Below are positions 3,602-33,863 of a stretch of 64,000 bases of DNA, one piece after another. The notes beneath the pieces were generated by a model. The model was not told the DNA's origin, made no database searches, and worked only from the letters and a program-made list of their open reading frames with translations. Numbering within the stretch: position 1 is the first letter of the stretch; the number at the start of each line of letters is the position of its first letter. The position numbers and the translations under genes were made by a program. Source of the stretch: Deltaproteobacteria bacterium (GTDB lineage Bacteria > Desulfobacterota > DSM-4660 > Desulfatiglandales > B25-G16); the NCBI GenBank assembly GCA_020349945.1, contig CP070704.1, positions 409,407 through 473,406 of the forward strand, given 5' to 3'.

Positions 3602-3634
3602 GGGGGGTCAAATCCTTATTTTTGACCAATTCAG
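3602..3634 (+). repeat. M1 repeat copy a
   Basis: GGGGGGTCAAATCCTTATTTTTGACCAATTCAG. Stem GGTCAAA/TTTGACC. Starts 22 nt after the stop at 3579. Confidence 0.85.
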
Positions 3635-3814
3635 AGGTGAAGAATGAAAAGTGCAGTGATACTGACGGCGCTGTTGTGGAAAAGGACGGCCTCGTTAAAG
3701 GCAGAATCAATATCAAGGGCAAAATTTAAGAAGAATTGGGAGTAAAGAAGAGGGTAGGGGAAGACAGTTGTCCTGAACCGATGATAGTAAGCCAAAGCAC
3801 GAAGGGAGATTATC
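3635..3814 (+). repeat. decayed sORF plus M2 module
   Basis: Aligns to both ends of 6855-7125 with an internal deletion and a frame change. GAATTGGGAGTAAAGAAGAGGGTAGGGG...CACGAAGGGAG matches 11775-11845. Confidence 0.7.
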
Positions 3815-4348
3815 ATGAAAATTCTTGCGCTCATTGGTAGCCCCAGAAAAGGGAGCAACACGGATACGTTAGTTGACCAAACTTTGAAAGGTTCTGAGGT
3901 TAGTGGTCATACATACGAAAAGATCTATCTTTACAATTACGATATCGCTCCATGCATTGACTGCCGTAAGTGTAAGCAAGGAGATTATGTTTGTGTTATC
4001 AACGATGGCATGCAGGAAATTTATCCGAAAATGGATGGGGCGGATGTAATTATTTTCGGTACTCCAAATTATTGGTATGGGCCTACCGCAAAGATGAAGC
4101 TTCTTATTGATAGAATGCGTCCATATGTGGCAAACGGGAAGCTCAAAGGCAAAAAGGCAGTTGTTATAACCCCTGCTGCTGAGGGACCACATGCATGTGG
4201 TCCTCTTATGGAAATGTTTCGCATGTGTTTCAAGTATCTGGAAATGGAATTTGCAGGCAAGATTTCGGCTGCGGCATATGAGAGGGGAGAAGTCAAGAAT
4301 GACCAAAAAGCACTGAGAAATGCTTATGGTCTGGGGGCTGCTCTGTAG
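3815..4348 (+). CDS. iron-sulfur flavoprotein (NADPH-dependent FMN reductase/flavodoxin-like fold)
   Basis: MKILALIGSPRKGSNT start. Compact CX2CX2CX6C motif (CIDCRKCKQGDYVC). IIFGTPNYW motif. Confidence 0.8.
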   Translation: MKILALIGSPRKGSNTDTLVDQTLKGSEVSGHTYEKIYLYNYDIAPCIDCRKCKQGDYVCVINDGMQEIYPKMDGADVIIFGTPNYWYGPTAKMKLLIDRMRPYVANGKLKGKKAVVITPAAEGPHACGPLMEMFRMCFKYLEMEFAGKISAAAYERGEVKNDQKALRNAYGLGAAL

Positions 4349-4751
4349 GATTGATCATGCCTCGTTATCAGGGAATATTCAGAAGGCAATTGTCTCGATA
4401 AAGCAGGGCCCGGAATCTGAGGGGTGAGCAGTATTTATGAGATGGGAAGTTCACCCATTAAATGACGAGGCGAGAAAGCGTAATTTCAGGGGCGTCCCGG
4501 TTTACATATTTCAATCAATATTCGGTACGTTTCAACGTTACCCTGGAGTAAACATGAGCAGGTGAAGTCCGAAACCTTGAGATATGCTCCAACCCTGCTT
4601 TCACTCCTTGTCCCAAATATTTCTGTTGACTTTCTCCAAACAATTCGGTATCCATAAAATTCCTGCGTTTAAATGAGTTAGCCTAACAATCCAATCCTTA
4701 ACCTTTTGGAGATAGTCATGGAGGTAGGGTTCCAAAAGGTGCCGATACAAG

Positions 4752-4795
4752 GCCTCCAGAGAGGTTTTAGATCTCTTTGGAGGCTCCTTTGCTTT
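4752..4795 (+). terminator. orphan hairpin plus T-rich tail
   Basis: GCCTCCAGAGAG-9 nt-CTCTTTGGAGGC (12 bp, one G.T), followed by TCCTTTGCTTT. It lies ~400 nt from the nearest upstream stop. Confidence 0.35.
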
Positions 4796-4975
4796 AATCC
4801 TTGATAAGGGACAAACTATATACTACGGCATAAGAACTGATAAAGATATCATTCATGCTATTGAAATTTGTCCGGTGCTGGGTTGTTATTGTGGTGAAAG
4901 TCAGGGTGGAGATATCTCAAGTTGAGGGATCTATACCATTAAATTCCAATCAATAGCAATAAAAGGAGGGTTAAA

Positions 4976-5275
4976 ATGATAGGCATGGATTTCATCAGCT
5001 TTCTTATTTTGTTGATTATCAGTGTTGTTGTCTCCGGGATCTTACATTTCGCCTTTAAGTATTACATTGTACCGGGATGGGGGTCTTATTTCTCCAAAAT
5101 CCTGATCGGGTGGGTCGGTGCATGGTTAGGCTCCCCGGTATTTGGTCATTGGTGGGTGGGCTTAAATTATAAGGAAGTGTATATTGTCCCTGCAATTCTG
5201 GGTTCTTTGTTACTTCTGATCTTTGCAGTGGACTGTATTAAGACTTGTGCAACCACTTCCAAGGGTAAAGGGTAA
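4976..5275 (+). CDS. GlsB/YeaQ/YmgE-like small membrane protein
   Basis: 99 aa, AAAGGAGGG RBS, glycine-rich TM helices (ILIGWVGAWLGSPVFG). Confidence 0.55.
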   Translation: MIGMDFISFLILLIISVVVSGILHFAFKYYIVPGWGSYFSKILIGWVGAWLGSPVFGHWWVGLNYKEVYIVPAILGSLLLLIFAVDCIKTCATTSKGKG

Positions 5276-5370
5276 CTACCTGTGATCAATGGGTCGCGTC
5301 TGCACGTTTGGCAAAAAAGCTCATGAAAAAGTGCAGGTTTGACCCTGGGGGCGCATATCAGACACTCAGG

Positions 5371-5416
5371 AGGAGGCAGGGCCGCCGCGGCCCTGCCTCC
5401 TTATTGCCATTTTTCG
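5371..5416 (+). terminator. rho-independent terminator
   Basis: Near-perfect 15-bp GC-rich palindrome AGGAGGCAGGGCCGC/GCGGCCCTGCCTCCT, followed by TATTGCCATTTTT. Confidence 0.7.
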
Positions 5417-5523
5417 GTCAGGCATCCGCTGTGAGTCCTGGATTCTATTGACTACGAATCTCCGTGAAGAGAACTTCTGGCACCCAATTGGGGTATAAGG
5501 AAGGTTTCTTGCAGGAGGTAAGG

Positions 5524-6819
5524 ATGGTAGTTTTTATTAGCGACTTGCATTTTGTAGATGGTAGTGCAGGTGAGCACAATGTGCCTGTAGATGCCTTCAG
5601 GATATTTTTCGAAGACATATCAGGCACGGTTAACTGGTTAGTCAAAAAGGGGCGGGAGGTTAAGGAGATTAAAATTGTCTTTTTGGGCGATGTGTTTGAT
5701 CTATTAAGAACAGAGAAGTGGTTTGATTACCATGTAAATGAAAGGCCATGGGGAAATGATGAGGCAAAGATTGAGGCCCATGCCAATCATATCTTTGACG
5801 CGATCATCAAGAAGAACAAGAGAACCTTTGACTTGTTGAAGAGTAATTTGAAAGACGAGTTTGGTCTTCCTGCTGAGCCCGATAGGATCTATGTCCCGGG
5901 AAACCATGATCGGATCTGCAACAAATATAAGAGTCTGAGAGACAAGGCGTGTCAATCGCTTGGACTCCCACCTCGTACTGCCCCCTTTGAGCACCACTTT
6001 TTTGATGTAGATTATGGTGTCCATGCCCGCCACGGGCATGAATATGACAAATTCAACTATGAGGGGAGCACCTCTTACCAGTACGAAGACTATATGAGGA
6101 TGCCTATCGGTGACCCGATTACTACCGAGCTCGTGGCAAAACTGCCCTGGAAGATTATGGGTAAACCAGAGATCAAGAAACTGCCCAAAACACAGCGAAA
6201 AGCCTTAGAGAGAAACCTCCAGGAGATCGAAAACGTGAGACCATTCTCAGCTATCCTGGAATGGCTCCTTTATCAGGTAAAAAAGAACCCTTCTTTAAAA
6301 GAAGTCATTGAGGATGCGGTAGATGAGATTATAAAGGAGTTTAACAAATTACAGTTTATCGGCAAATGGTATGAACACCACGATAAATGGTCTGATTTCT
6401 GGGATGAGGCAGACAAAATACAGTCTGTGCTCTTCTTGCTTGAAAAATTTAAGGTCTTTCCCTCTGAAAAGCTCATGCCCCTTTTAGAAAGAGTGAAAAA
6501 TCGTTTTGCCAGGGATGATCTTTTGGAGGCTGCCACAGATGAATATTCATATTTAGACAATCGCATAAGATATGTGGTCTATGGACATACTCATGTGCCT
6601 GTTCAGGTGCCGCTGCGAACTGTTGAAGACCCTGCTGGTTCAAAAGAGCATATGTATTTAAATACAGGTACCTGGCGTACCGGATACTACAAATGCAAGG
6701 AAGGTTTGGGTTTCACTGGTTGGAAAAATCTCACCTACCTGGTCTTTTATAGAAAAGAGGAAAGAAAACTGGATTTCCCCACCTTTGAGACCTGGACAGG
6801 CACATTAAAAACGGTTTAG
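5524..6819 (+). CDS. calcineurin-like metallophosphoesterase with large helical insertion
   Basis: Motifs ISDLHF, FLGDVFD, PGNHDR, RHGHEYD and YGHTHVP. Start moved to the ATG at 5524 behind a GGAGGT RBS. Confidence 0.8.
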   Translation: MVVFISDLHFVDGSAGEHNVPVDAFRIFFEDISGTVNWLVKKGREVKEIKIVFLGDVFDLLRTEKWFDYHVNERPWGNDEAKIEAHANHIFDAIIKKNKRTFDLLKSNLKDEFGLPAEPDRIYVPGNHDRICNKYKSLRDKACQSLGLPPRTAPFEHHFFDVDYGVHARHGHEYDKFNYEGSTSYQYEDYMRMPIGDPITTELVAKLPWKIMGKPEIKKLPKTQRKALERNLQEIENVRPFSAILEWLLYQVKKNPSLKEVIEDAVDEIIKEFNKLQFIGKWYEHHDKWSDFWDEADKIQSVLFLLEKFKVFPSEKLMPLLERVKNRFARDDLLEAATDEYSYLDNRIRYVVYGHTHVPVQVPLRTVEDPAGSKEHMYLNTGTWRTGYYKCKEGLGFTGWKNLTYLVFYRKEERKLDFPTFETWTGTLKTV

Positions 6820-6823
6820 GAGA

Positions 6824-6854
6824 GGGCTCGAATCCTTATTTTTGACAAATTCAG
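6824..6854 (+). repeat. M1 repeat copy b
   Basis: GGGCTCGAATCCTTATTTTTGACAAATTCAG. Starts 4 nt after the stop at 6819. Followed by the intact sORF. Confidence 0.85.
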
Positions 6855-6863
6855 GGGTGAAGG

Positions 6864-7112
6864 ATGAAAGGTCTAGTGATAGTGGTGACGTTTCTGGTAA
6901 TGACCCTGTTTGAGGGTGCTGTTCTGGAGAAGGACTACCTCAGCAAAGGCAGGATCAATAATAAAAGCAAAACCGGTGAGCTGAAGGGATGGATGAAAAG
7001 GGACACACTTCAGCTTGACAGGGTGAACGTCTATGACAAGTATGGGAACATGAAGGGTTATTTAGTGAGGGATACCCTGAATCCCGATGCCTGGTTTTTT
7101 AAAGAGAATTGA
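6864..7112 (+). CDS. small secreted protein; the only intact copy of the repeat-associated sORF
   Basis: 82 aa with a signal-like N-terminus. Internal repeat KGWMKRDTLQLD / KGYLVRDTLNPD. Its 5' and 3' ends recur as decayed fragments at 3643-3760 and 11727-11783. Confidence 0.5.
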   Translation: MKGLVIVVTFLVMTLFEGAVLEKDYLSKGRINNKSKTGELKGWMKRDTLQLDRVNVYDKYGNMKGYLVRDTLNPDAWFFKEN

Positions 7113-7422
7113 GAAAGGGAGGGGTCGTTACACCAAGTTTCCGGTACATTCGAACAATCGTAGATCGCGGATCTGAATTCTTCTCTGCTTCACTCAAAGA
7201 TGGTTTTCATAAGATTATCTTCAGGCGTGGATTACACCGCAGTTCACCTTCAGAGGGAAAATAGCGAAAAACCTCAGGATTGGTAACAAAACCTTCCAGA
7301 AAGAGGGGGCTATTCTAAACGGCCTGAATACCTCAGGGCGGAATCATTCGAGCTCCTCTTAAATCATCCGGCTTACCTGGAAATATCAGGAGCAACGTGA
7401 CCATAAGTAAAGGATCAGAGTC

Positions 7423-8409
7423 ATGATCAACAAATACCGCGGCTGCTTGTTGGGGCTTGCAATCGGTGACGCATTGGGGGCGCCTGTTGAGTTTCTGAAA
7501 TTAGGGGAAATAAAGAGGCGTTACGGTAAAGATGGAATCAGGGAGTTTAGGCAATGGGGATCCCTCAGGCCCGGGTCCTATACAGATGATACCCAGATGT
7601 CACTGGCCCCCGCGGTTGGTTGTATAAGGGCCTGTCAGAGATGGAAAGAAACGGGAGTTTGTGATCCTGCATCACTTGTGTACCAGCGCTATCTGGAGTG
7701 GCTTGAATCCCAGAATGATCCATACCAGAGAAGGGCTCCGGGCAGTACATGTTTAAATGCGTTAAGAAATGGCCACATGGGAACGGTTGAAAAGGGAATC
7801 AATGACAGCAAAGGGTGCGGTGGAGTAATGCGCACTGCTCCCGTCGGTTTAGCCTTCCCACCCGGGAAAGCATTCCAGCAAGGTGCAGAATGCGCAGCCA
7901 TAACTCATGGACACCCCTGTGGATACTTATCAGCCGGGTTCCTCTCTGAAATGATATCCCGCATAAGTGAAGGGGCAACGCTCGAGAAGGCAATAAATGC
8001 GAGTATTGAGCTTTTGGCCACATATGACGGCCATAGGGAGACGCTCGAGAAGATTGAACTTGCCCGTTCCCTGTCCACTAGCAGCACCTCAGTCGAGGAA
8101 TGCATTCAAGCCATCGGGGAGGGATGGGTGGGGGAGGAGGCATTGGGCATTTCCCTCTATTGCTCCTTAAAATTCTCTGATAACTGGGAAGAAGGGGTAC
8201 TGAGCGCTATCAATCATTCGGGAGATAGTGACTCTACAGGGTCAATTACCGGTGCGATACTGGGGACCCTACTCGGTATCGGATCAATCCCAGACCGATG
8301 GGTCAAGGATGTAGAAGAATCAGAGAAGATCCAGAAGATAGCTCATGATATGTTCAGGATATTCAAAAAAGGAGAAGACCTTTCTCGCGATGAGTATCCA
8401 CCCTATTGA
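7423..8409 (+). CDS. ADP-ribosylglycohydrolase family protein (DraG/ARH-like)
   Basis: GCLLGLAIGDALGAPVEF, YTDDTQM and HSGDSDSTGSITGAILG are family hallmarks. Confidence 0.85.
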   Translation: MINKYRGCLLGLAIGDALGAPVEFLKLGEIKRRYGKDGIREFRQWGSLRPGSYTDDTQMSLAPAVGCIRACQRWKETGVCDPASLVYQRYLEWLESQNDPYQRRAPGSTCLNALRNGHMGTVEKGINDSKGCGGVMRTAPVGLAFPPGKAFQQGAECAAITHGHPCGYLSAGFLSEMISRISEGATLEKAINASIELLATYDGHRETLEKIELARSLSTSSTSVEECIQAIGEGWVGEEALGISLYCSLKFSDNWEEGVLSAINHSGDSDSTGSITGAILGTLLGIGSIPDRWVKDVEESEKIQKIAHDMFRIFKKGEDLSRDEYPPY

Positions 8410-8418
8410 CTGTAGGCT

Positions 8419-8444
8419 GGGGGTCTCTTTATTTTTGACAAATT
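8419..8444 (+). repeat. M1 repeat copy c
   Basis: GGGGGTCTCTTTATTTTTGACAAATT. Starts 9 nt after the stop at 8409. Confidence 0.75.
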
Positions 8445-8486
8445 GGTCTATAAAGGTAAATCCGTAGTACAAGGGGGCTTTGAAAC

Positions 8487-8717
8487 ATGAAATACCCGAG
8501 TGGGCATCAATTCTTCATGGCAGTGCTGATTTTACTTACTGCCCTGGGGATAACGAGCGGGTGCGATAGCGGCGAAAAGATGGTAGATGAGGTTACCGGG
8601 AACCGGGCTGTCAAACAGTACCATAAATCGAAAAAAGATATCGAAAAGATAACCGAGCAACAGGCTGAACGATATGAGGGCATCCCGGATGATGAAAGGG
8701 AAGATGAGAAACAGTAA
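8487..8717 (+). CDS. small lipoprotein
   Basis: 76 aa with lipobox-like LGITSGC after a hydrophobic N-terminus. Confidence 0.55.
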   Translation: MKYPSGHQFFMAVLILLTALGITSGCDSGEKMVDEVTGNRAVKQYHKSKKDIEKITEQQAERYEGIPDDEREDEKQ

Positions 8718-8741
8718 GGAAGTAGGATGGGGCGGAGCACT

Positions 8742-8905
8742 CATGAATTGTTGAAACTGCAGTCAGTGAAGACCAGGGTCAAACCTCGATCTATTGAAAA
8801 TTGGCCTGATACCTGATGCTGATAGGCTGAGATGCAAGGGAATTCTGCAAAAAAGATAAAGCCACTGGGCTATACAGGAATTCTCCTGCATGGTAATTGC
8901 AAGGC
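8742..8905 (+). repeat. M2/M3 composite copy
   Basis: CATGAATTGTTGAAACT (also at 14769). CCTGATGCTG..CAAGGGAATTCTGCA. Hairpin CTATACAGGA-ATTC-TCCTGCATGG at 8870-8893. Confidence 0.75.
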
Positions 8906-9045
8906 AAGGAATCTTTTTTGTCCGCCTTTTTTGGCAGATTTAACAATGAGCTAGTGCACTACAGAGAAGCTTTGGATCCATTTCCACACATAGTGAACGA
9001 AGTGAACAAGAGGCGAAAGGTATATGGATTGGTATATATCTGTGG

Positions 9046-9465
9046 TCAATCTGCGATCTTAAATTCGAGATTGGTCATGTCGCCTCTCTTGAATCCCATG
9101 GCATCAAAAAACTGAAGAAGAGTCCAGTCCCGCCAGTTTACAAGGGGGTAGACGGAATCAACACCTACCTTTTTCATATAGTTAAGCATCTCCTCGGTTA
9201 ACATTCGAGCTACACCCTTCCTCTGATAAGCTGGATCAACCCCTATGGTGTCTATCCAGCCGATATTTTCTGGCACACCATATTCCCATCCACTTGCGTC
9301 CCCAAGAATAAAACCGACAACCTTGCCCTCCATTTCCGCTACAAGAGACGGGAGTGGTGATCTTTTTCCTGTCATCTCAACCTTTCCCTCCCAGTATTCT
9401 GGCCTCCTTTCTCCAAGAACCAAGTTGTCAATCTCGATGATCCTCTCAAGATCATGTTCCCTCAT
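9046..9465 (-). CDS. GNAT family N-acetyltransferase
   Basis: VDPAYQRKGVARML acetyl-CoA motif. The frame stays open upstream (…NIPVIRA-MREHDL) with no canonical start, so the true start is uncertain (see findings). Confidence 0.75.
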   Translation of the reverse strand: MREHDLERIIEIDNLVLGERRPEYWEGKVEMTGKRSPLPSLVAEMEGKVVGFILGDASGWEYGVPENIGWIDTIGVDPAYQRKGVARMLTEEMLNYMKKVGVDSVYPLVNWRDWTLLQFFDAMGFKRGDMTNLEFKIAD

Positions 9466-9904
9466 TGCCCTAATAACCGGTATGTTTCCCGGTTCCTTTT
9501 CGATATCATTCTCCTTTCTTGTAATGAAATTAAGGTTATTGCGAATCTCCCTTCCCTGATTCGGATCCTACCTGATGAGAGTCAATTGAGCAGCCTTTTT
9601 ATACAACTATGATATATAAATCACTGTTCATGTGAAAAAATGTTTCCCCCAGTGGCAAAGGGTAAAGATCTGTAAAAGTCCGTGTTGATAAATTCTTAGG
9701 TTATATACGAGTACTCTTTAGACCAAACAGCCCTCCTGAGGTTCATACATGAGGTCATAACAGCATTACTTAAGGGTTATCGAGCCAGGTTCGAATTTCA
9801 CGGACATAGAATAGCCATTCAAGACTCAAAAATCCACGGAAAACATAAGAGAGGCTTTTTACAGGGGGATTCTGATAGACCAATGCAGCAGGGAACCTTC
9901 TAAA

Positions 9905-9960
9905 ATTTAAAATATATTAGACTACGGGGAAGTTTTTCTGCATAGTAATTGTTCGGCGTA
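9905..9960 (+). repeat. M3 copy
   Basis: CTACGGGGAA-GTTT-TTCTGCATAG (9922-9945), then TAATTGTTCGGC. Ends 8 nt before the ATG at 9966. Confidence 0.7.
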
Positions 9961-9965
9961 AGACG

Positions 9966-10950: not shown

Positions 10951-11000
10951 GGGGTGAGGCCCTCCAGAAACACGGCGGGCAGGCCCTCGAATCGTGGATT
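10951..11000 (+). repeat. R2 repeat copy a (5' part)
   Basis: GGGGTGAGGCCCTCCAGAAACACGGCGGGCAGGCCCTCGAATCGTGGATT. Confidence 0.7.
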
Positions 11001-11004
11001 AAAA

Positions 11005-11028
11005 GGGCTCAGATCTTTTTTTACATAG
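11005..11028 (+). repeat. M1 repeat copy l (degenerate)
   Basis: GGGCTCAGATCTTTTTTTACATAG, directly after repeat R2a. Confidence 0.5.
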
Positions 11029-11194
11029 AACTTTTGTTGAGGGGTTACCCATCAATGGTGCTGAGGGGATAGATAAGGGATCAGCGCCTCAAATTGGACT
11101 AAATGATTACTAAATCGTAAACAGTTTTGACAGGTCAACTAATCACAAACGGAGGGAGGAACACCGTAATGACTAAATAAAAAAGGAGGTAGGC

Positions 11195-11576: not shown

Positions 11577-11604
11577 GGGGTCAGATCTTTTTTTTGACAA
11601 ATTT
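11577..11604 (+). repeat. M1 repeat copy d
   Basis: GGGGTCAGATCTTTTTTTTGACAAATTT. Starts 7 nt after the stop at 11569. Confidence 0.8.
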
Positions 11605-11719
11605 CATTCTGAATAAACCCTGTCAAGATGAATAACTGAGGGTGGTTGGCCTTGGGATTGGATAATGTTAAAGTTATAAATGGAATTCAATAAGTTAGGA
11701 TTCATCGTGTAAGTAATAA

Positions 11720-11907
11720 GTGAAGGATGAAGAGAGATACCCTGAATCCCCATGCCTGGTTTCTTAAAAAGAATTGGGAGTAAACAAGAGGGAAGGGCAT
11801 TGACAATTGCCCTGAAAACTGATGCTGGCTAAAACACAAGGGAATTCTGTAGAACATAAAATAAATCGGACTGTGCAGAATTTCTTCTGCATAGTAATTA
11901 TTAGGTC
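11720..11907 (+). repeat. sORF remnant + M2 + M3 (most complete composite, continuing from M1 copy d)
   Basis: GTGAAGGATGAAGAGAGATACCCTGAATCCCCATGCCTGGTTTCTTAAAAAGAATTGGGAGTAA. Hairpin CTGTGCAGAA-TTTC-TTCTGCATAG at 11871-11894. Ends ATTAGGTC. Confidence 0.8.
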
Positions 11908-12998: not shown

Positions 12999-13026
12999 GG
13001 GCCCAAATCCTTATTCTTGACAAATC
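12999..13026 (+). repeat. M1 repeat copy e
   Basis: GGGCCCAAATCCTTATTCTTGACAAATC. Starts 40 nt after the stop at 12958. Followed by R2b. Confidence 0.75.
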
Positions 13027-13046: not shown

Positions 13047-13123
13047 GGGTCAGGCCCTCCAGAAACACGGCGGGCAAGCCTTGTATCGTGAATTTTCCCT
13101 CATGTAAGTGATGCGGCCATGAG
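13047..13123 (+). repeat. R2 repeat copy b (longest)
   Basis: GGGTCAGGCCCTCCAGAAACACGGCGGGCAAGCCTTGTATCGTGAATTTTCCCTCATGTAAGTGATGCGGCCATGAG. Confidence 0.8.
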
Positions 13124-14720: not shown

Positions 14721-14752
14721 GGGGCCGAAACCTTTATTTTCGACAAATTCAG
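14721..14752 (+). repeat. M1 repeat copy f
   Basis: GGGGCCGAAACCTTTATTTTCGACAAATTCAG. Stem CGAAA/TTTCG, with G-C where copy a has A-T. Confidence 0.8.
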
Positions 14753-14763
14753 CCCGTTGCTTC

Positions 14764-14847
14764 CGGACCATGAATTGTTGAAACTCCGTAAAAAAGATAA
14801 AACCATTGGACTACAGGGAAATTCTCCTGCATAGTGGTTGTTAGGCC
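14764..14847 (+). repeat. M3 copy with internal deletion
   Basis: CATGAATTGTTGAAACTCCGTAAAAAAGATAAAACC...CTACAGGGAA-ATTC-TCCTGCATAG, then TGGTTGTTAGGCC. Confidence 0.75.
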
Positions 14848-15959: not shown

Positions 15960-15986
15960 GGGGGTCAAATTAAGAATTTTTGCAAC
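15960..15986 (+). repeat. M1 repeat copy g (degenerate 3' half)
   Basis: GGGGGTCAAATTAAGAATTTTTGCAAC. Starts 20 nt after the stop at 15939. Confidence 0.6.
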
Positions 15987-16038
15987 ACCAATGAAGGTAT
16001 TTTCCAGTAAGGAGAGAATTCTCTCTATCCGCATATAA

Positions 16039-19761: not shown

Positions 19762-19787
19762 GCTTTTGCAGTTTCGCAGAGACCAAA

Positions 19788-19816
19788 GGCAGGGTCAGAG
19801 ATGGCCCTGCCTTTTT
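19788..19816 (+). terminator. rho-independent terminator
   Basis: GGCAGGG-TCAGAGATGG-CCCTGCC, then TTTTT, 27 nt after the cytochrome c peroxidase stop. Confidence 0.8.
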
Positions 19817-19822: not shown

Positions 19823-19848
19823 GGGGGTCAGATCTTTATTCTTGGCAC
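19823..19848 (+). repeat. M1 repeat copy h
   Basis: GGGGGTCAGATCTTTATTCTTGGCAC, just after the terminator at 19788-19816. Confidence 0.7.
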
Positions 19849-19974
19849 ATGGAGCGTATCGCCTCATGCTCAGGAATTTTCTAAAAGCAGTGTGTGAAAT
19901 GCATTTGTGTTTGGATCTTCAATGGGGTATTTTCACGTATGGAGAGAATGCTATGTCGTCAGAGGAGGTGTGTT

Positions 19975-20439: not shown

Positions 20440-20466
20440 TTGTGGCAGCGAGAGTCAATGGAATTT

Positions 20467-20510
20467 AGGGCCTTGAATCGTGAATTTTCACTGGTGTATA
20501 AAATGAGCGC
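20467..20510 (+). repeat. R2 repeat copy d
   Basis: AGGGCCTTGAATCGTGAATTTTCACTGGTGTATAAAATGAGCGC. Confidence 0.65.
20473..20502 (+). promoter_or_regulatory. candidate sigma70 promoter inside repeat R2d
   Basis: TTGAAT-N18-TATAAA, 85 nt upstream of the SYLF gene start. Confidence 0.4.
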
Positions 20511-21300: not shown

Positions 21301-21352
21301 GAGGTCAGGTCTTCGATCGTGAATTTTCACTTACATAAAGATGCGGCCATGA
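21301..21352 (+). repeat. R2 repeat copy c
   Basis: GAGGTCAGGTCTTCGATCGTGAATTTTCACTTACATAAAGATGCGGCCATGA. Lacks the CCCTCCAGAAACACGGCGGGC insert of copies a and b. Confidence 0.75.
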
Positions 21353-23647: not shown

Positions 23648-23961
23648 CGAGGAGTTGATACTTGGATTTGGGTATGCCGTTTCAGAAAGGGAAATCCCCA
23701 CCTCGCATCACTTTTGAGCGATGGAGAGGTTGTTTGCCATGCCTCTGTAGTTGGCTAGCTGGCGTGCGGGCATTTTAAAAACAGGGAGGAGATCCTTTCG
23801 CTCCTTCAAGCACTTCCGATGGCCGAGACAGCAGAGCGTAAATGTGGACGTCCGATACAAGGCTAAAAGCGGCTTCTGCTGAATTAGACGTGGCTTATCG
23901 GTGAGCTTAACTCCTTTTCGCCCACGGTCCCATTCATAAAGAGGGAAACGACGGAGCCCTT

Positions 23962-24775: not shown

Positions 24776-24802
24776 GGGGCCAAATCTTTATTTCTAACAA
24801 AG
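24776..24802 (+). repeat. M1 repeat copy i
   Basis: GGGGCCAAATCTTTATTTCTAACAAAG. Starts 13 nt after the stop at 24762. Confidence 0.65.
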
Positions 24803-24912
24803 TGAGCCCTTTGTTTGTCGCTAAGTGATTATCAAAAGGCCGCTCAGGATATTTTCAGGACAAAAAGGCAATGTGTGTACGGGCGGTATTGCAAAGAAGT
24901 GAGGAGAGTACA

Positions 24913-26316: not shown

Positions 26317-26337
26317 TATGCAGTTTTGAAACACGAC

Positions 26338-26425
26338 TCAGGATATTTTCATCTTTCTCAGTTTGACTTTTTTAAACATTTTTAGAATGCCGGCCTGAAA
26401 GGGTGCAGCGTAGGTCCCCTTTTCG
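26338..26425 (+). repeat. R3 direct repeat, left copy
   Basis: TCAGGATATTTTCATCTTTCTCAGTTTGACTTTTTTAAACATTTTTAGAATGCCGGCCTGAAAGGGTGCAGCGTAGGTCCCCTTTTC. Confidence 0.8.
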
Positions 26426-27233: not shown

Positions 27234-27453
27234 TGTTAGACCCCATTCCATCCCCGCGCTTATCAGCAAACTTCATAGGGATTATTGGGTCCCATCTTTT
27301 GTTGTGGAGAATTCCAATGCCGTTGTATGCTATCGCCTTACGGATCCCAGAGCAGACCCAGGATTCTCACCGATCTCTTAAAAGTTTACATCTTCCCTAA
27401 AATATTGCTAGATTTTATGAAATTCCTGGCACCTTGTCCGAGGGGGATACGAT

Positions 27454-28062
27454 ATGAAAATTAAGGAATGGATGGTCAAAGATCCAATAACTGTGACCAA
27501 GGATCAAACGATTCAGGAATGTGTGGACTTGATGAAAGAACACTCCATCCGCCATTTGCCAGTTGTGGAAAACAAAAAACTGAGTGGCCTTGTCACTGAA
27601 AGCAACTTGCGGCAGGTATTCCTTGCTTCTATGATTGAGGATCTCAAGCTTGAAGATGTCATGATAAGAGATCCGATAACTGTTACCCCGGACACTGAGA
27701 TAGAGGATGCGGCGAAGCTCATTTATCACAACAAGATAGGAGGCCTTCCAGTAGTAGATCATGACGATCAAGTTGTGGGCATTATCACTGTGGCAGATCT
27801 TGTGGCTGCATTTATAGAATTAATGGGCCTGTTAAGATCCAGCTCAAGAATAGATGTGATTCTTGGTGAAGAGCCGGAGGCATTCGAGACTGTCTCAAGG
27901 CTCATCAGAAGCCGTGGGGGCGAAATCATCAGTGTAGGGATTTCCGGGCATCGTCTGAGAAGAGAGCGAATATACTTCTTTCGATTAAAAAAGCGCAATG
28001 TGCAACATATCGTTGAGGCCCTCGAAAAAGCCGGCTTTGAGGTGGTCTCTTCTATGGCTTAA
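27454..28062 (+). CDS. CBS-pair plus ACT-like domain protein (AcuB-like)
   Basis: Two CBS repeats (IRHLPVV, IGGLPVV) and a C-terminal ACT-like region. Confidence 0.75.
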   Translation: MKIKEWMVKDPITVTKDQTIQECVDLMKEHSIRHLPVVENKKLSGLVTESNLRQVFLASMIEDLKLEDVMIRDPITVTPDTEIEDAAKLIYHNKIGGLPVVDHDDQVVGIITVADLVAAFIELMGLLRSSSRIDVILGEEPEAFETVSRLIRSRGGEIISVGISGHRLRRERIYFFRLKKRNVQHIVEALEKAGFEVVSSMA

Positions 28063-28116
28063 AAAGAGGACACATCAGGTGATCTAATTTTCTCAGGTTG
28101 GAAAACAGGTGGCGAG

Positions 28117-28407
28117 TTATGTCGGTTTTAAGTTACCGAGTGCTTGCCGAAGGTAGTCCTGCTCTTCATCTGTCACGTCAACATTCATTGTTCGCGCTCC
28201 ATCAGGAGAGATTACATTTGCCTGAAATTTCCTTCCCGCGATTTTAAAGGCTACCTGGAACTCATACCCACAATCCGGACATCTGAGATATCTGATAGCT
28301 CCATTCCAAGAGAACTCCTCCTTAATACTCTCTGTATCTATTTCACATGTGGGGCACTGTACTGATTGCTCTATTTGCCTGATTACTCTTCTAATTTCTT
28401 TTCTCAT
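28117..28407 (-). CDS. small zinc-ribbon protein
   Basis: 96 aa, CPTC...CPDC. Confidence 0.5.
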   Translation of the reverse strand: MRKEIRRVIRQIEQSVQCPTCEIDTESIKEEFSWNGAIRYLRCPDCGYEFQVAFKIAGRKFQANVISPDGARTMNVDVTDEEQDYLRQALGNLKPT

Positions 28408-28453
28408 TTCCCGCTACAAGAAGGAGGATCGTTAGAAAATAACTCCTTATCGT

Positions 28454-29212
28454 TTATCCAGGCCAGTGTGATATGGCAACAGAGAGGGACTCTTTCATCT
28501 CTTCACGGGAGGTTAAACCCAGGGCCAGCCCGTCTACTTGACCATATTGTGCAATAAAGGGAAGGCCGACGGTGGGCGAAAGCACGCCCGCAGCCAATGT
28601 CTTCTTGGCAATGACAGGTTGTTGAATAGAATCCAGGATCTTTATTAACGCATCTGGCTTGCAATCCATGAACATACCTTCACGATTGAATGGGGCCATA
28701 TATGCCTGTATATCAAGGCCGGATTGTCTGAGGACAGGGAGAACACGGGCCGGTTTGTGAGTAGCGCACCCGGGAACAAGGCCCAGATTCCTGATATCCT
28801 TTAACCATCTCTCAATACCCTTAAGGTCAAGTTGGTCTGTAACCATAGCGTGAAGGAAGACCACCTGGGGATCTATATCGGACGCCTGCTTGAGTTCCCA
28901 ATCCCTGTCTCCAAATCCAACGGTCAATGTACATGCAAGGTCAACCCCGCTTTGTGCTTTTGACTCCCTAAAGGCATCCAGAATACGGTCTATGGCCAGA
29001 AGCTGCACACACGGCACGCCGAGCTCGGCCGCATACACCATAAGGTCTACTATATTGGCTGGATTGTCAAAGAAGAGGCGACGGTAGGTAGGGGCTCGAG
29101 TTCCAAACTGACCAGCCCCGATAAAAGGCGAGGTGCCCAGACTTACGGCCGGTAGCTCCCTCCCGCCAATGGAAATGATCCTGACCTTACTGATCATCGA
29201 AATGCTTTCCAT
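28454..29212 (-). CDS. hypothetical protein (possible TIM-barrel, AKR-like N-terminal motif)
   Basis: 252 aa, directly downstream of the GalT-like gene. LPAVSLGTSPFIGAGQFG loosely resembles the aldo/keto-reductase N-terminus. Confidence 0.5.
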   Translation of the reverse strand: MESISMISKVRIISIGGRELPAVSLGTSPFIGAGQFGTRAPTYRRLFFDNPANIVDLMVYAAELGVPCVQLLAIDRILDAFRESKAQSGVDLACTLTVGFGDRDWELKQASDIDPQVVFLHAMVTDQLDLKGIERWLKDIRNLGLVPGCATHKPARVLPVLRQSGLDIQAYMAPFNREGMFMDCKPDALIKILDSIQQPVIAKKTLAAGVLSPTVGLPFIAQYGQVDGLALGLTSREEMKESLSVAISHWPG

Positions 29213-29230
29213 GGTTAATTGATAGGCTTT

Positions 29231-30286
29231 CTAATTTTTTCCTGTAAAGTAGGCCCTCACTTCTTTGCACATCACTTCAGGCATTACAACGCACACCGGT
29301 TCCTGATGCAATGCCTGGTAGAAGCATAGATCAGATGCATGGTCTCTGGTGTTGAGGAAGGTTCTTGGAATAATACGGAAGTGCGCTGAAAAGAACTCTT
29401 GGTCTTGTGGCCCGAAGAAAAGTGATGTATTGAAGCTGAAGATATTCTTGTCCACATAGTATGAAAAGATCCTTCTAATTCCTGAAGCCAGTTCGGAGAT
29501 ATGTGCCTCATTGAAATCATCAATAGAATACACATCGGGGAATATACCTATAATCTCACCAAGGACTCCAAGTGATACAAATGATGCCAACCAGTGAGAA
29601 CTATTAGTGCTGCCTATGTACCGTTTATCTCTCTGTTGCTCAATCCTGACCAGCTCTTTCCAGTAATTCACACCGTGTTTTTTATAGAATGCTTTCGAAC
29701 ACCTCATTTCGTCTGTAACCTGGTTTCCTGGAAACTGCGTGGCAAAACACTGTTGGTGAGGATGAACCAACCCCCCACCTGATGGCGGCATATAGTTCCA
29801 ATCCATTAGATGGTAAGGAAGTGAGGGATCGATAGACTTAATCCTTTTCAGGAAGGCGACGCCAATAGAAAAAGAGTCCAGAAGGATTTTCTCGTTTAAT
29901 CGTTCTAAGGGAACCACATGCTCAGTGGCCATGATGGTTATTGCACTGTAGACGTCATATGGGTATAGATTGGGAATAAGGAGGGCCTCACCCTTGGATA
30001 ATCGCCCATCAGGAAATATATATTCTGGGAATTTCGGAGTAGCTCTGTACCTTAAGTCAGAACAAAATGGACAAAACCCTTTCACCTCAGGATTCGAATA
30101 TGACTCAATGGGCAACCTCTGTGGTTTAACTGCGCCAAGGCGAACAAAATGGCCTGTTCTACCCGTGAGAGGATCATATCGTACCTGGAGTTTCTCTTCG
30201 GTAAGCTGATATTCTTTCCGAGGATCGAGGAATAGGCTTTTGCCCTCAACCTGTTTAAATTCTATTGGTGTGGATATATCAACCAT
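29231..30286 (-). CDS. GalT-branch HIT-superfamily nucleotidyltransferase (divergent)
   Basis: CPFC zinc motif and GGLVHPHQQ (HxHxQ). Start moved to 30286 (GGGGGAGG RBS). Confidence 0.7.
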   Translation of the reverse strand: MVDISTPIEFKQVEGKSLFLDPRKEYQLTEEKLQVRYDPLTGRTGHFVRLGAVKPQRLPIESYSNPEVKGFCPFCSDLRYRATPKFPEYIFPDGRLSKGEALLIPNLYPYDVYSAITIMATEHVVPLERLNEKILLDSFSIGVAFLKRIKSIDPSLPYHLMDWNYMPPSGGGLVHPHQQCFATQFPGNQVTDEMRCSKAFYKKHGVNYWKELVRIEQQRDKRYIGSTNSSHWLASFVSLGVLGEIIGIFPDVYSIDDFNEAHISELASGIRRIFSYYVDKNIFSFNTSLFFGPQDQEFFSAHFRIIPRTFLNTRDHASDLCFYQALHQEPVCVVMPEVMCKEVRAYFTGKN

Positions 30287-30404
30287 ACTGACCTCCCCCT
30301 TCTTACCTTTTAGAGGCATGCGGGTGTTAGATATAGCTCATATGGGTATGCTTTACAAGCAAATCGGGGTCGGCCTTGCACTCATAGCTATTGAAAGACC
30401 TGTT

Positions 30405-30490
30405 AGGGTATTTTCATCTTTTCCAGTTTGACTTTTCTCATGATTTATAGAATGGTGGTCTGAAGGGGCGCAAAATGCTGGTCCCTTTTC
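30405..30490 (+). repeat. R3 direct repeat, right copy
   Basis: AGGGTATTTTCATCTTTTCCAGTTTGACTTTTCTCATGATTTATAGAATGGTGGTCTGAAGGGGCGCAAAATGCTGGTCCCTTTTC. Confidence 0.8.
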
Positions 30491-30544
30491 CGCGTTCCAA
30501 TACTATCCTCGTCTGGTTATGCCATAACCCTTGTTTGGAATGCT

Positions 30545-31180
30545 ATGAAAGACAGCCAGGGAATACGCCAGGATAAAGAAGAGATTGAGGGGCAAGGGTT
30601 TGGAGAGTTACTCAGATATACTGTCGCAGGTTTTGCTGGGGGATTGATAATTGCCGCCCTCTTGGATTCTTTTGGACTGCAGAGAAGTCCCGTCGGGCAA
30701 TGGATAGTCCGGACATTATCCGGGGAAGGCGAAAGTATTCTTGAGGGGTTCTATGCCTTTCGTCGTCGAATGCTCAAGGAAAGGGGAACGCTGGCAGAGG
30801 CCTACGGGTGGGGAAAATTTTTCGGTATGATAGTTCCGTGGATCATAGACTGGGGCAGTCGCATTCTGGGCGTTAATGTGTATGGAGTCGAGGGTTTCTA
30901 TATTCCCTATTTCTATGCGATGAGTGACCAGATTGGTGCAAACGTAAGTGGCCTTATCTTTATTCGAAGGAAAACAGGCTCGTTTTCAAGGGCACTGCTT
31001 ACCTATTTTCGTCAGCCTGTAATGTTGACAAGTTTGGTAATTATTTTTGTTGTTCCGGCCGGTTTACTGAGTGCACGGCTGATGGGATTTAGCCCGAAAA
31101 CCCAGATTCTCACGGCATTAGAGACAATTGTTGCAAATCTTTGTTGGTTACCCCCCTTTCTGGGCTGGCTTATGAAATAG
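30545..31180 (+). CDS. hypothetical membrane protein
   Basis: 211-aa ORF with several hydrophobic helices. Confidence 0.5.
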
Positions 31181-31343
31181 AGGGCAGTGCTGAAAAGGGA
31201 ATCAGTTAATAAAAAGATACTCCATGCCCTCGCGGTTTTGGGTTAGAATTACTAATAAGTAACAGTGAGTTAAATGAAAGGGGAAGTGGGCCTTCCTCAA
31301 GGGTGCGGAAAGGAAGGCTACGAGCATAAATGGAGAATTACCA

Positions 31344-32165
31344 ATGGGAGTAAAAAGGGCTGATCAAAGAAGGGGAATTATAACGGTTAAACTTCACCAT
31401 GAACCTAAGCTCAAAGATCCCTACCTGTTTGCCGCCTGGTCCGGGATGGGTAATGTAGCTCTTGGGGCTGCTGAATACCTGAGGGACAAATTGGGGGCTG
31501 AACAATTTGGGGAGATAAAGCTGACCGAATGTTTTGGTTTCTCCGGCGTCTCGGTCAAGGATGATGGAACAGTGGAATCCCCGACGTTGACAACATCACC
31601 CAGGAATGAGTTTTACTGCTGGAAGAGAAGGGGTTCTGCCCATGATGTAATAATCTTTATGGGAGAGGCCCAGCCAAGCGGAATGGAATATGAACTCGCT
31701 CATAAGGTTATTGAAGTAGCAGAGAAGTTCAAGGTAAAAAGGATATACACCGCTGCTGCCTTTGCGCTTCCCATACAGGTCAGCCAGGAATCAAAGGTTC
31801 ATTGTGTGGCTACCAATGTTGAACTGATAGGGGATTTGAAAAGATTCGATCTAAGGTTAATGACTGACGGAAGCATTAGCGGGTTGAATGGTTTCATTTT
31901 GGGAATTGCCAAGAAAAAAGGGATTGAAGGCGTCTGCCTGTTGGGAGAAATGCCGAACTATCTGACCCATATAGAATATCCAAAGGCCTCCCATGCTGTG
32001 CTTTCCATCTTGACCAAAATGCTCAATATCAATATTGACCTGGGTGAACTGCTAGCCGTGGCTAAATATCAGGAAGAAGAGATCAAGAGATATATCAAGA
32101 AAATTGAAGAGCAGTTACAGCTGCAAAAGGCACTTGAGGAGGAGAAGCCAAAGGTCTTGCATTAA
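31344..32165 (+). CDS. PAC2 (proteasome-assembly-chaperone-like) family protein
   Basis: LFAAWSGMGNVALGAAEYL matches the family N-terminal motif. Confidence 0.55.
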   Translation: MGVKRADQRRGIITVKLHHEPKLKDPYLFAAWSGMGNVALGAAEYLRDKLGAEQFGEIKLTECFGFSGVSVKDDGTVESPTLTTSPRNEFYCWKRRGSAHDVIIFMGEAQPSGMEYELAHKVIEVAEKFKVKRIYTAAAFALPIQVSQESKVHCVATNVELIGDLKRFDLRLMTDGSISGLNGFILGIAKKKGIEGVCLLGEMPNYLTHIEYPKASHAVLSILTKMLNINIDLGELLAVAKYQEEEIKRYIKKIEEQLQLQKALEEEKPKVLH

Positions 32166-32191
32166 AATGTTTCCTTATCCTCTAAAGGGTA

Positions 32192-32218
32192 GGGGGTCGA
32201 ATCCATATTCTTGACAGA
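32192..32218 (+). repeat. M1 repeat copy j
   Basis: GGGGGTCGAATCCATATTCTTGACAGA. Starts 26 nt after the stop at 32165. Followed by an M3-like fragment. Confidence 0.75.
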
Positions 32219-32254
32219 GTTGCCTTCTTGCGTTGCGCTAGTGAATTTGTAAAG

Positions 32255-32285
32255 CAGGGAATATTCTGCATATGGTTCTAATATG
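32255..32285 (+). repeat. M3-like fragment
   Basis: CAGGGAATATTCTGCATATGGTTCTAAT resembles the GGAATTCT..TGCATAGTAATT core. Confidence 0.45.
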
Positions 32286-32293
32286 GATCCTCC

Positions 32294-33724
32294 CTAGTAA
32301 GCGTTCATCAACAGTTCCTGTTTCACCCTGAATAATCTTTCACTCAGGCTGACATGATAGAGATGGGGGTTTTGCAATCGCTTGAACTCGCAGTCTAAGC
32401 GATCCAGGTTCCTTTTCGTATTCTCCTGAATTTTCCCAATGGGAGGGGTATCGTAAACCCGCTTGCCATTGAGGAAGACGGGGATAAGCAATTCCTCCCG
32501 TCCGAAGTCGGCAGGATACGACTTAGAGACATGGGGAAGCACCGCGTGGAATACCCTAATTGGCTTGTCGGGATCGGGGGTCTCGTTCTCCAGGAACAGG
32601 ACATCTCCTCGCATCATGCCTGCTTGATCGTAGTATCGAACCAACCTCTTTACCCCTGGATTGGTGATTTTTTCCGGATTATCGGACCTCTTGATCTTTG
32701 GCACCATTTCGCCATCCTCAGCGATGGCGGTCAGCTTATAGACGCCGCCGAGGGCAGGGCATGAATAAGAAGTGACGAGCCTTGTTCCTACACCCCAGGT
32801 ATCGATTTTCGCCTCTTGTTTCTTGAGACTCTCTATGAGCCACTCGTCGAGGTCGCTGGAGGCGATGATCTTGGTTTGTTGAAATCCATTCTCATCTAAC
32901 ATCTTTCTACATTGTTTGCTGAGATAGGCAAGATCACCGCTATCGAGCCTGATCCCTATCAGCTTACCTTGTCCATTATCCCTCAGTTCCCGGCCGATTT
33001 GGATGGCATTGGGGACACCGCTCCTGAGAGTGTGGTACGTATCCACGAGCAACAGACAGCTCTTTGGGTAGATCTTTGCGTAGGCGCGGAAGGCCTCAAG
33101 TTCAGAGGGAAAAGACTCTATCCAGCTGTGAGCTATGGTCCCCCTGACGGGTATCCCCAGCATTTTCCCTGCCCAGAGGTTTGACGTACCCATTGCCCCT
33201 CCGATAAAGGATGCCCGTGCCGCCCCAAGGGCAGCGTCAGGACCATGGGCTCTCCTGAGGCCGAATTCGATGACTGGGTCCCCCTCTGCGGCGATGCAGA
33301 CCCGCGCCGATTTGGTGGCGATCAGGGTCTGGAAGTTCATAATGTTTAACAAGGCGGATTCAATGAGCTGGGCCTCGGGAAGTGGGGCGGTTACTCGGGC
33401 TATGGGTTCGTTGGGGAAGATGGCCGTCCCCTCGGGGACTGCGTAGAGGTTTCCGGTAAAGCGGAGTTTGCTTAGGTATTCGAGAACATCCGCGGGGAAT
33501 ATGTTGAGGGTTTCCAGATAGGCTATATCCTCTTCGGCGAATCTGATGTTTTTGATGTAATCGATTGCCTGTTCGAGGCCTGCGGCGATGCAGAATCCAC
33601 CATCGTCGGGTACTCTGCGAAAGAAATAATCGAAGTTGGCCCATTGGTCCTTTTTCCCGCTGACAAAGTATCCCCCAACCATGGTGAGTTCGTACAGGTC
33701 CGTCAGGAGTGTTAGGTTACGCAT
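32294..33724 (-). CDS. pncB: nicotinate phosphoribosyltransferase
   Basis: LLTDLYELTM, GTSN and RLDSGDL motifs. Start at 33724 (GGGAGGA RBS). Confidence 0.9.
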   Translation of the reverse strand: MRNLTLLTDLYELTMVGGYFVSGKKDQWANFDYFFRRVPDDGGFCIAAGLEQAIDYIKNIRFAEEDIAYLETLNIFPADVLEYLSKLRFTGNLYAVPEGTAIFPNEPIARVTAPLPEAQLIESALLNIMNFQTLIATKSARVCIAAEGDPVIEFGLRRAHGPDAALGAARASFIGGAMGTSNLWAGKMLGIPVRGTIAHSWIESFPSELEAFRAYAKIYPKSCLLLVDTYHTLRSGVPNAIQIGRELRDNGQGKLIGIRLDSGDLAYLSKQCRKMLDENGFQQTKIIASSDLDEWLIESLKKQEAKIDTWGVGTRLVTSYSCPALGGVYKLTAIAEDGEMVPKIKRSDNPEKITNPGVKRLVRYYDQAGMMRGDVLFLENETPDPDKPIRVFHAVLPHVSKSYPADFGREELLIPVFLNGKRVYDTPPIGKIQENTKRNLDRLDCEFKRLQNPHLYHVSLSERLFRVKQELLMNAY

Positions 33725-33835
33725 CGCATTCCTCCCAAAGAATATAGGATAACAGTATTCAGGCAATGTGCCATGATCGCCTGTCAGTCTAGCTTACAAC
33801 GAAAGATCCTTTAATACAATGTGAATCTTGTCTAA

Positions 33836-33863
33836 GGGGCCGAATCAATATTTTCGATAAATT
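33836..33863 (+). repeat. M1 repeat copy k
   Basis: GGGGCCGAATCAATATTTTCGATAAATT. Stem CGAA/TTCG. Lies upstream of the minus-strand pncB gene. Confidence 0.7.

Follow-up and report, generated by a model that had tools for sequence, protein, structure and literature searches.

Why should one short repeat lie twelve times, always on the same strand, between the genes of a single chromosomal region? The question is raised by a 64,000-nt segment of a bacterial chromosome (the window, meaning the whole stretch of DNA analysed here), in which the repeat M1 is present in 12 copies, all on the + strand, all intergenic and none past 34 kb. A preliminary description of this DNA had read M1 either as a structured RNA element of 3' untranslated regions (3'UTRs) or as a repeat mobilised through single-stranded DNA. 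We consider M1 likely to be the terminal inverted repeat (TIR), 26-27 nt long, of a TIRtron, an insertion sequence (IS)-like element encoding a TIRYT, and the copies in the window to be its debris. The TIRYT in question is a Y1 (HUH) tyrosine transposase of ~330 amino acids (aa), similar to the REP-associated tyrosine transposases (RAYTs) and ending in a DnaA-C-like helix-turn-helix (HTH).

M1 bounds a transposase gene in other genomes

TIRtrons were described by Di Nocera et al. (2013), who found RAYT-like genes flanked by long TIRs instead of REPs and named the genes TIRYT and the elements TIRtrons; the sequence GGGGWSAS is common to some or many of these TIRs, some of them overlap the 3' end of the gene, and they occur singly, as dimers or in groups, in families of moderate abundance (PMC3733652). 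Most TIRYTs were later placed in subclass 2.1 of the TnpA-REP proteins, with Bac_DnaA_C/HTH C-terminal extensions (Quentin et al., 2018; PMC6006769).

A degenerate M1 pattern, with the putative pairing positions left free, was run against the GTDB representative genomes, one for each species. The scan yielded 106 stretches (loci are numbered with the prefix L), most of which bear the near-invariant 26-mer GGGGTCAAATCTTTATTCTTGACAAA. This 26-mer is spread over metagenome-assembled genomes (MAGs) of at least six phyla, with the labels Desulfobacterales, Syntrophales, Syntrophorhabdus, Atribacterota, Candidatus Brocadia and other Planctomycetes, Aminicenantes, Nitrospirae and Komeilibacteria; the exact M1/TIR sequence is absent from the searchable literature. 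At many loci the 26-mer ends 26-28 nt before the ATG of an open reading frame (ORF) starting MARxLRIQYPGA.YHV..RGN, and four loci hold full elements of ~1.06 kb with this one gene (L031:2896-3957, also L040, L066 and L087). The full-length ORFs encode 330-337 aa, and in these four loci an inverted 26-mer overlaps their 3' end, the right TIR (TTG TCA AGA ATA AAG ATT TGA) specifying the stop codon and, before it, the final residues LSRIKI. In Pfam the protein matches Y1_Tnp (E ~1e-13 to 3e-13) and, weakly, Bac_DnaA_C at its C-terminus (2e-3). It is longer than a RAYT and shows the HUH motif, the catalytic Tyr and signatures of the RAYT type (YHV..RGN, HFHLL and YQGRY); the NCBIfam model REP_Tyr_transpos (REP-associated tyrosine transposase) scores it at 71-76 bits, below the cutoff of 80.

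The 158 motif hits in the scanned loci include 82 solo copies, 52 that pair up as convergent doublets with no gene between them, 15 at the 5' end of a TIRYT gene and 10 at its 3' end; divergent doublets were not encountered. The doublets are TIR pairs 6-30 nt apart, and one of them (L016:1936-2013) folds at -28 kcal/mol (z = -12.8). No target-site duplication is visible by eye at the doublets, and no plasmid or phage carrying the motif was found. Thus, the preliminary suggestion of a REP- or PATE-like repeat handled by a Y1 HUH transposase was right in kind, M1 being elsewhere the TIR of RAYT-like Y1 elements, whereas its view that the motif is of no recognised family is not supported, as M1 fits a class, TIRtron/TIRYT, that was introduced in 2013 (PMC3733652) and given a new classification in 2018 (PMC6006769). 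Judged from sequence, M1 would represent a new family within this known class. RAYT-type transposases are usually seen as domesticated and vertically inherited (PMC5581495; bioRxiv 10.1101/2021.07.10.451892); against this, the near-identity of the TIR across phyla argues for recent horizontal spread.

Two side observations concern the elements of other genomes. Just 5' of the TIR at ten loci (L004, L013, L014, L024, L031, L034, L037, L042, L059 and L066), a 7-nt flank together with the first TIR bases (GGG, GGGGTC, up to ~20 nt) is tandemly duplicated two to three times before the full TIR, as in ctacgatggtc-ctacgatggggtc-ctacgat-GGGGTCAAATC. Such a stutter was seen at 10/92 canonical copies vs 1/92 in the control test, and it may have arisen at the element boundary, either by recurrent nicking and rejoining or by slippage. 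Moreover, locus L117 holds a second, unrelated TIRtron, in which a 225-aa Y1_Tnp gene lies between 28-nt TIRs ATTTCCGGGGACACATTACTCAATTATT (6021-6048 and 6755-6782); its TIR (GGGGACAC) matches GGGGWSAS exactly, and there is a solo copy at 4642-4696.

The window holds decayed solo copies

The window contains solo M1 copies exclusively, 4-41% diverged from the master TIR (16-26/27 positions identical). The variant of the window type is termed T12C and is also written GGGGTCAAATCCTTATT(T/C)TTGACAAAT. The copies are listed below.

c3602: 3604 to 3630, + strand; solo TIR relic, 26/27 identical to the T12C variant of the master; the sole hairpin that beats shuffles
c6824: 6824 to 6850, + strand; 4 nt past a stop codon; followed by a ribosome-binding site and an 82-aa small ORF (6864-7112)
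c8419: 8420 to 8443, + strand; internal deletion of 3 nt
c11005: 11005 to 11031, + strand; the most decayed copy, 16/27; preceded by module M2
c11577: 11577 to 11602, + strand; followed by small-ORF remnants, a TTGACAAT box and a D2/D6 module
c12999: 12999 to 13025, + strand; followed by module M2 (13047-13107)
c14721: 14721 to 14749, + strand; followed directly by ext (14750-14792), then by D2/D6 (14778-14846); the most complete composite of the window
c15960: 15961 to 15988, + strand; centre rearranged
c19823: 19824 to 19850, + strand; just past a GC-rich stem and T-run; followed by ext (19852-19893)
c24776: 24776 to 24802, + strand; followed by ext (24804-24845); identical in the 96%-identical strain L107
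c32192: 32193 to 32219, + strand; followed by ext (32222-32262); between convergent genes; one difference in L107-L110
c33836: 33836 to 33863, + strand; in a divergent spacer, adjoining the 5' end of the minus-strand NAPRTase gene; kept in L107-L110
Possible 13th copy, seen by eye: 9660 to 9695, + strand; degenerate, with ~6 extra central bases; under the threshold of the hidden Markov model (HMM)
Possible remnant, seen by eye: 30366 to 30399, + strand; GGGGTC fused to ext-like sequence that runs into repeat D3; under the HMM threshold

These 12 copies stand where the preliminary description had placed them. A degenerate consensus finds eight of them in the window, every one on the + strand, against 0.08 expected by chance. 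A profile HMM built from the 12 copies recovers exactly these at 11.5-24.3 bits, the next-best match in the window reaching 5.7 bits and the maximum over 10 window shuffles 8.7 bits; trained on the same 12 copies, the model is informative solely for the absence of further ones, and it finds none on the minus strand and none beyond 34 kb. Hence, the earlier claims of strict co-orientation and of a 36-64 kb part free of M1 both stand. The strand bias (12/12) has p = 0.0005, and with 65% of the intergenic DNA of the window falling within the first 35 kb, the confinement of all 12 copies to that part has p = 0.011. A recount likewise agrees that ten copies begin 4-72 nt past a + strand stop codon, the exceptions being c14721 (189 nt past a stop) and c33836. 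It does not follow that M1 is sited just 3' of stops, as had been proposed: once the small ORFs downstream of c3602, c6824 and c8419 are counted, 6/8 copies are closer to the upstream stop than to the next start (p = 0.29), so the apparent preference mostly reflects short spacers.

The mean identity of the copies is 0.80-0.82 to the master vs 0.71 among themselves, a star-like pattern such as copies dispersed from a single source would show if each had then decayed independently. In a metagenome scan, the exact consensus of the T12C variant (GGGGTCAAATCCTTATTTTTGACAAAT) was present in metagenome contigs. One match (L124) comes from the same sample as a strain that is ~96% identical to the window over aligned DNA blocks; in this strain (L107-L110), c24776, c32192 and c33836 are retained and differ by 0-2 changes each, which is close to the background divergence. 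Strains with DNA ~96% identical are contained in JGI samples 3300024353 and 3300009499. Additionally, L117 has three co-oriented solo copies of the GGGGTCAAATCCTTATTTTTGACAAAT type that share the same downstream extension. Relatives with an 85% identical NAPRTase show neither synteny nor M1 and are unusable as a conservation test. No hidden inverted partner was found beside any M1 copy of the window by HMM search, even at E <= 100.

The preliminary description had also pointed to an IS200-family tnpA remnant as the partner of M1, and this assignment is not supported. The minus-strand ORF at 60764-61045 has no Pfam hit and is not flanked by M1; its only similarities are weak ones, of residues 24-44 to the N-terminal part of IS608 TnpA (E = 0.06) and of residues 45-78 to the C-terminal part of ISDra2 TnpA (E = 0.6), and the middle of the protein is missing. 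It is a decayed fragment of a classical IS200/IS605-type tnpA, not a TIRYT, and is unrelated to M1. The copies in the window are most likely debris, and most likely inert, of a non-autonomous TIRtron derivative that would have colonised the spacers of a 30 kb accessory-gene region.

Several points weigh against this interpretation. No TIRYT gene was detected in the window by tblastn with two TIRYT proteins, so a cognate transposase is not seen beside the copies. The start of M1, GGGGTCAA, agrees with GGGGWSAS at 7/8 positions, with A in place of S at the last. The sequence that follows M1 in several copies (ext, see below) resembles neither end of the full TIRtrons sampled more than shuffles do. 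To our knowledge, there is no experimental demonstration of TIRYT activity. The two papers that define the class contain no TIRYT activity assay either (PMC3733652; PMC6006769). Finally, solo copies in other genomes have no orientation bias with respect to GC skew (36:32) or the coding strand (38:28); strict co-orientation is thus not general to the family, and its cause in the window can be proposed solely by inference.

Origin of the co-orientation

By analogy to IS200/IS605 TnpA and TnpA-REP, a TIRYT might act on DNA in its single-stranded state, nicking one strand at the TIR ends and rejoining it. Derivatives without a gene could then spread into intergenic spacers and decay there, so that copies from one source would each have diverged independently. 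The co-orientation in the window is probably local in origin and probably has several causes. A directional composite (described below) may sit upstream of + strand genes; some local segmental duplication may have contributed; and, possibly, insertion was strand-specific, into the lagging-strand template, a suggestion that we make because GC skew is positive on the + strand almost throughout the window. In other genomes, adjacent solo copies tend to share a strand (7:2).

M1 heads a mosaic repeat

Four copies (c14721, c19823, c24776 and c32192) share ~45 nt downstream of M1, termed ext, with the three co-oriented solo copies of L117. The order of the mosaic is M1, then ext or M2, then a TTGACAAT box (also given as a TTGACAATnnCCCTGAAAACTGAT box), then D2/D6, all modules being co-oriented; the composite headed by M1 measures ~190 nt. 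The whole series is found in one piece in L072, from a separate Syntrophobacterales MAG, where it follows a canonical M1, and in L119, where the T12C variant precedes it. Apart from ext, the modules and one strain polymorphism lie as follows.

D2/D6 module: 8819 to 8905, + strand; last module of the mosaic; promoter-like TGGGCT-17-CATGGT
D2/D6 module: 9872 to 9957, + strand; ends 9 nt before the start of the GNAT gene
D2/D6 module: 11825 to 11905, + strand; preceded by a TTGACAATTGCCCTGAAAACTGAT box (11799-11822)
D2/D6 module: 14778 to 14846, + strand; after the ext of c14721
M2 module: 10952 to 11003, + strand; related to the tail of ext (..CCAGAAACACGGCGGGCAGGCC..)
M2 module: 13047 to 13107, + strand; 3' of c12999; L119 has the same order of M1, then M2
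Strain polymorphism site: 28069 to 28076, + strand; the window reads GACACAT|CAGG where L107 carries a 93-nt ext..CCTGCAT element

D2/D6 is 80-90 nt long, has the conserved features TGGACT-17-CATAGT and ..TTCTCCTGCATAGTAATTGTTAGG, ends 9-20 nt before two gene starts and is ~75% identical to its counterpart in L072 (reverse complement, 2383-2299); it could be a mobile promoter or leader module. Repeat M2 is GGGTSAGGCCCTCCAGAAACACGGCGGGCARGCC..ATCGTGRATT, with weaker relatives at 20464-20499 and 21303-21338. M1 and a small-ORF module occur together three times (3604-3760, 6824-7114 and 11577-11797, that is, with c3602, c6824 and c11577), and hence at least these M1 copies spread, or were kept, with flanking sequence. 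The small ORF, intact solely at 6864-7112, encodes 82 aa; its N-terminus is hydrophobic and signal-like, and Pfam gives no match. The idea that the extension after M1 is a remnant of one or the other end of a TIRYT gene was discarded, as its similarity does not exceed that of shuffles and tblastn is negative.

A further direct repeat, D3, was noted in the same region: 82 nt at 26326-26407 and 30391-30472, 78% identical, it begins with the end of ext (TTGAAACAC) and continues with CTCAGGATATTTTCATC..TTGACTTTT. The CTCAGGATATTTTCA of D3 also follows ext after c24776, and a similar GGAATATTTTCATC lies near 34030.

Alternatively, M1 and its trailing modules could have been co-opted as a common upstream element, either a mobile promoter or a 5' leader, driving the + strand gene downstream of each copy. 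M1 contains a perfect -35 hexamer, TTGACA, and 10 or 11 of the 12 copies have a + strand gene ~12-330 nt downstream; moreover, the last module carries the conserved TGGACT-17-CATAGT and ends shortly before two gene starts, and the order of the composite is the same in L072 and L119. In the full TIRtrons (L031:2896-3957, L040, L066 and L087) the TTGACA of the left TIR lies constantly 29-31 nt before the ATG of the transposase, which suggests a -35 box borne by the TIR and a leaderless transposase mRNA. In the window, however, no -10-like hexamer is seen by eye 16-18 nt after the TTGACA of any copy, so a sigma-70 promoter at each M1 was ruled out, and a promoter scan lists one weak site only, overlapping c8419. 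Furthermore, c32192 is directed into the 3' end of a convergent gene, linkage to D2/D6 is found in just 4/12 copies, and between the 96%-identical strains the copies change about as fast as the background (2-3 differences in 81 nt). We therefore regard co-option as an unlikely account of the window copies. Promoters of the Bacteroidetes type (TAnnTTTG) or with archaeal BRE/TATA elements were dropped, since the organism looks Desulfobacterota-type and has Shine-Dalgarno sites.

A bolder variant would make the M1-headed composite a still-active non-autonomous element, mobilised by a TIRYT, equipped with an outward promoter, inserting sequence-specifically and recruited as the common upstream control module of redox/stress accessory genes. 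The 93-nt element of L107 (14909-15002), absent from the window, exactly abuts the 3' side of GACAAAT, a heptamer that ends M1, and it is because of this exact abutment that sequence-specific insertion is invoked. A 3-nt CAG microhomology at the 28069-28076 junction makes precise excision and slippage deletion both possible. We speculate, with little expectation that it will prove correct, that the composite is such an element; if it were, it would be a "mobile promoter" spread across phyla by a Y1 HUH transposase.

M1 is most likely not a structured RNA element

According to the preliminary description, M1 folds as a short hairpin in which one stem position varies while the structure is preserved, and the tolerance of a G.T intermediate would favour an RNA-level structure, for instance a shared 3'UTR element. 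A short hairpin in the 3'UTR of the upstream gene might serve as a terminator, processing site or stabiliser. The placement of ten copies shortly past + strand stops, their co-orientation with transcription and the 7-bp stem of c3602 speak for such an element, and classical REPs do stabilise upstream mRNA. The folding data, however, do not bear the hairpin out. Folded as single-stranded DNA, c3602 reaches -5.1 kcal/mol (z = -2.3) and is the only copy that beats shuffles, the other 11/12 lying at 0 to -2.3 kcal/mol, inside the shuffle range; the master TIR alone folds at -2.0 kcal/mol (z = -1.9). RNAalifold on 14 extended copies (M1 and extension) returns -0.39 kcal/mol with the proposed stem absent from the prediction. 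Nor does M1 with its extension have a consensus structure: single folds have z of -0.1 to +0.8, and units up to 136 nt fold no better than chance.

The covariation likewise dissolves against controls. In the proposed 7-bp stem, 64.2% of cells are paired vs 64.5% in shuffles, and the covariation score is 0.118 vs 0.131, with 361/500 shuffles at least equal. The G-C state is confined to c14721 and c33836 (Fisher p = 0.13) and may be a single event, because both copies share CCGAA..TTCGA; the pair next to the variable position is broken (C-A) in four copies.

The M1 stem is A/T-rich and weak, lacking the G+C-rich stem and T-tract of an intrinsic terminator, and a terminator scan of 3-20.5 kb called no terminator-like site at any M1. 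Rfam gave no match at gathering thresholds in the whole window and none at E <= 1 in 3-35 kb. No + strand gene lies upstream of c33836, and in unrelated phyla the same sequence is a transposon end. At ~19785-19816, immediately 5' of c19823, a GC-rich stem and T-run (AGGCAGGG-loop-CCCTGCCTTTTT) looks terminator-like by eye and is absent from the terminator scan; if it is a terminator, c19823 would follow it, not act as one. A 3'UTR role is accordingly very improbable, the G.T-based argument for it having lost its stable fold, its covariation and any Rfam counterpart. The copies most likely have no present RNA function, and M1 merits annotation as a repeat, not as a regulatory RNA.

Genomic surroundings and gene cassettes

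The window has Shine-Dalgarno sites and looks to be of the Desulfobacterota type, its IlvD and NAPRTase being closest to proteins of sediment MAGs labelled Thermodesulfobacteriota, Dehalococcoidales and Omnitrophica. The part from 1 to 35 kb holds heterogeneous accessory genes, mostly on the + strand: MscL, FMN reductase, metallophosphoesterase, ADP-ribosylglycohydrolase (for which an exact-protein look-up returned no record), GNAT, a HEAT-repeat protein, an alpha/beta hydrolase, three AhpC-type proteins, an MFS transporter, an SDR, a CBS protein and PAC2; the NAPRTase gene lies on the minus strand between c32192 and c33836. Core metabolism genes fill 36-64 kb.

Further differences from strain L107 were noted. 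At 30376-31205 the window has 829 bp, including an ORF at 30545-31180 without a Pfam match, vs 75 bp in L107, which in turn has 316 extra bp at window position 23654, within the segment of a called VapB-like antitoxin gene. The aldehyde:ferredoxin oxidoreductase gene (38445-39665, minus strand) lacks 684 bp at 39684 relative to L107 and retains the C-terminal domains only (406 vs 621 aa), being either a pseudogene or the result of an assembly difference.

That the M1 copies are recombination sites bounding mobile gene cassettes, in an integron-like or HUH-mediated capture array, is scarcely credible: heterogeneous accessory genes do lie between co-oriented sites, a similar array with a VapBC pair exists in L117, and the 93-nt element directly 3' of GACAAAT is present or absent between strains, but the window has no integrase or TIRYT (no recombinase domain among ~60 ORFs scanned), M1 lacks attC-like R/L boxes and an extended palindrome, no gene-scale indel with M1 at its boundary separates the window from the 96%-identical strain, and gene content varies inside single inter-M1 intervals. 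An attC/integron array proper was ruled out, there being neither boxes nor integrase, as was a tRNA/tmRNA T-arm remnant (GGTTCGAATCC-like), for which the window offers no complementary T-stem and no tRNA.

M1 among known mobile repeats

The TIR of the M1 TIRtron family, 26 nt in length, hardly varies across at least six phyla, in which most of the bacteria are anaerobic and uncultured. The family's full elements, gene-less doublets, solo copies and stutter duplications are possible substrates for a first TIRYT biochemistry, and we consider both the near-identity of the TIR across phyla and the mosaic, promoter-like composite worth following up.

Several known systems were compared with M1. Integron attC sites, like M1, are co-oriented between heterogeneous, mostly co-oriented genes, whereas M1 has neither the RYYYAAC/GTTRRRY boxes nor the imperfect palindrome of 57-141 nt, and no IntI is nearby. 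Miniature inverted-repeat transposable elements (MITEs) share with M1 the gene-less TIR pairs and the multi-copy intergenic spread; MITEs, however, are normally derived from DDE elements and have target duplications, while the M1 doublets are Y1-derived and none is seen. IS200/IS605 elements and PATEs resemble the M1 elements in the Y1 HUH transposase, the lack of a visible target-site duplication and the presumed single-strand mechanism, and differ from them in their ends, which are asymmetric subterminal hairpins without TIRs instead of 26-nt inverted repeats.

The REP/REPIN-RAYT systems, too, consist of short extragenic repeats tied to a Y1 transposase of the same superfamily, with convergent doublets that fold into long hairpins and a preference for the spacers of co-directional or convergent genes. 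Unlike REPs, M1 begins with GGGG, has no conserved GTAG or CGTC tag, and as a single unit is barely self-complementary, with no stable stem-loop. The M1 elements also differ in having true TIRs and in their apparent horizontal mobility, RAYTs being as a rule single-copy genes passed on vertically, and the NCBIfam RAYT model scores the M1-element protein below its cutoff. With TIRtrons, the related loci share a Y1 HUH RAYT-like gene placed between long TIRs that begin with GGGG, a 3' TIR running into the end of that gene, a protein tail of the Bac_DnaA_C/HTH type at the C-terminus, and TIRs that are also intergenic as single, dimeric or grouped repeats. What sets M1 apart within this class is that a near-identical 26-mer spans at least six phyla, and that the copies in the window are all solo and decayed, are joined to additional repeat modules and have no transposase beside them.

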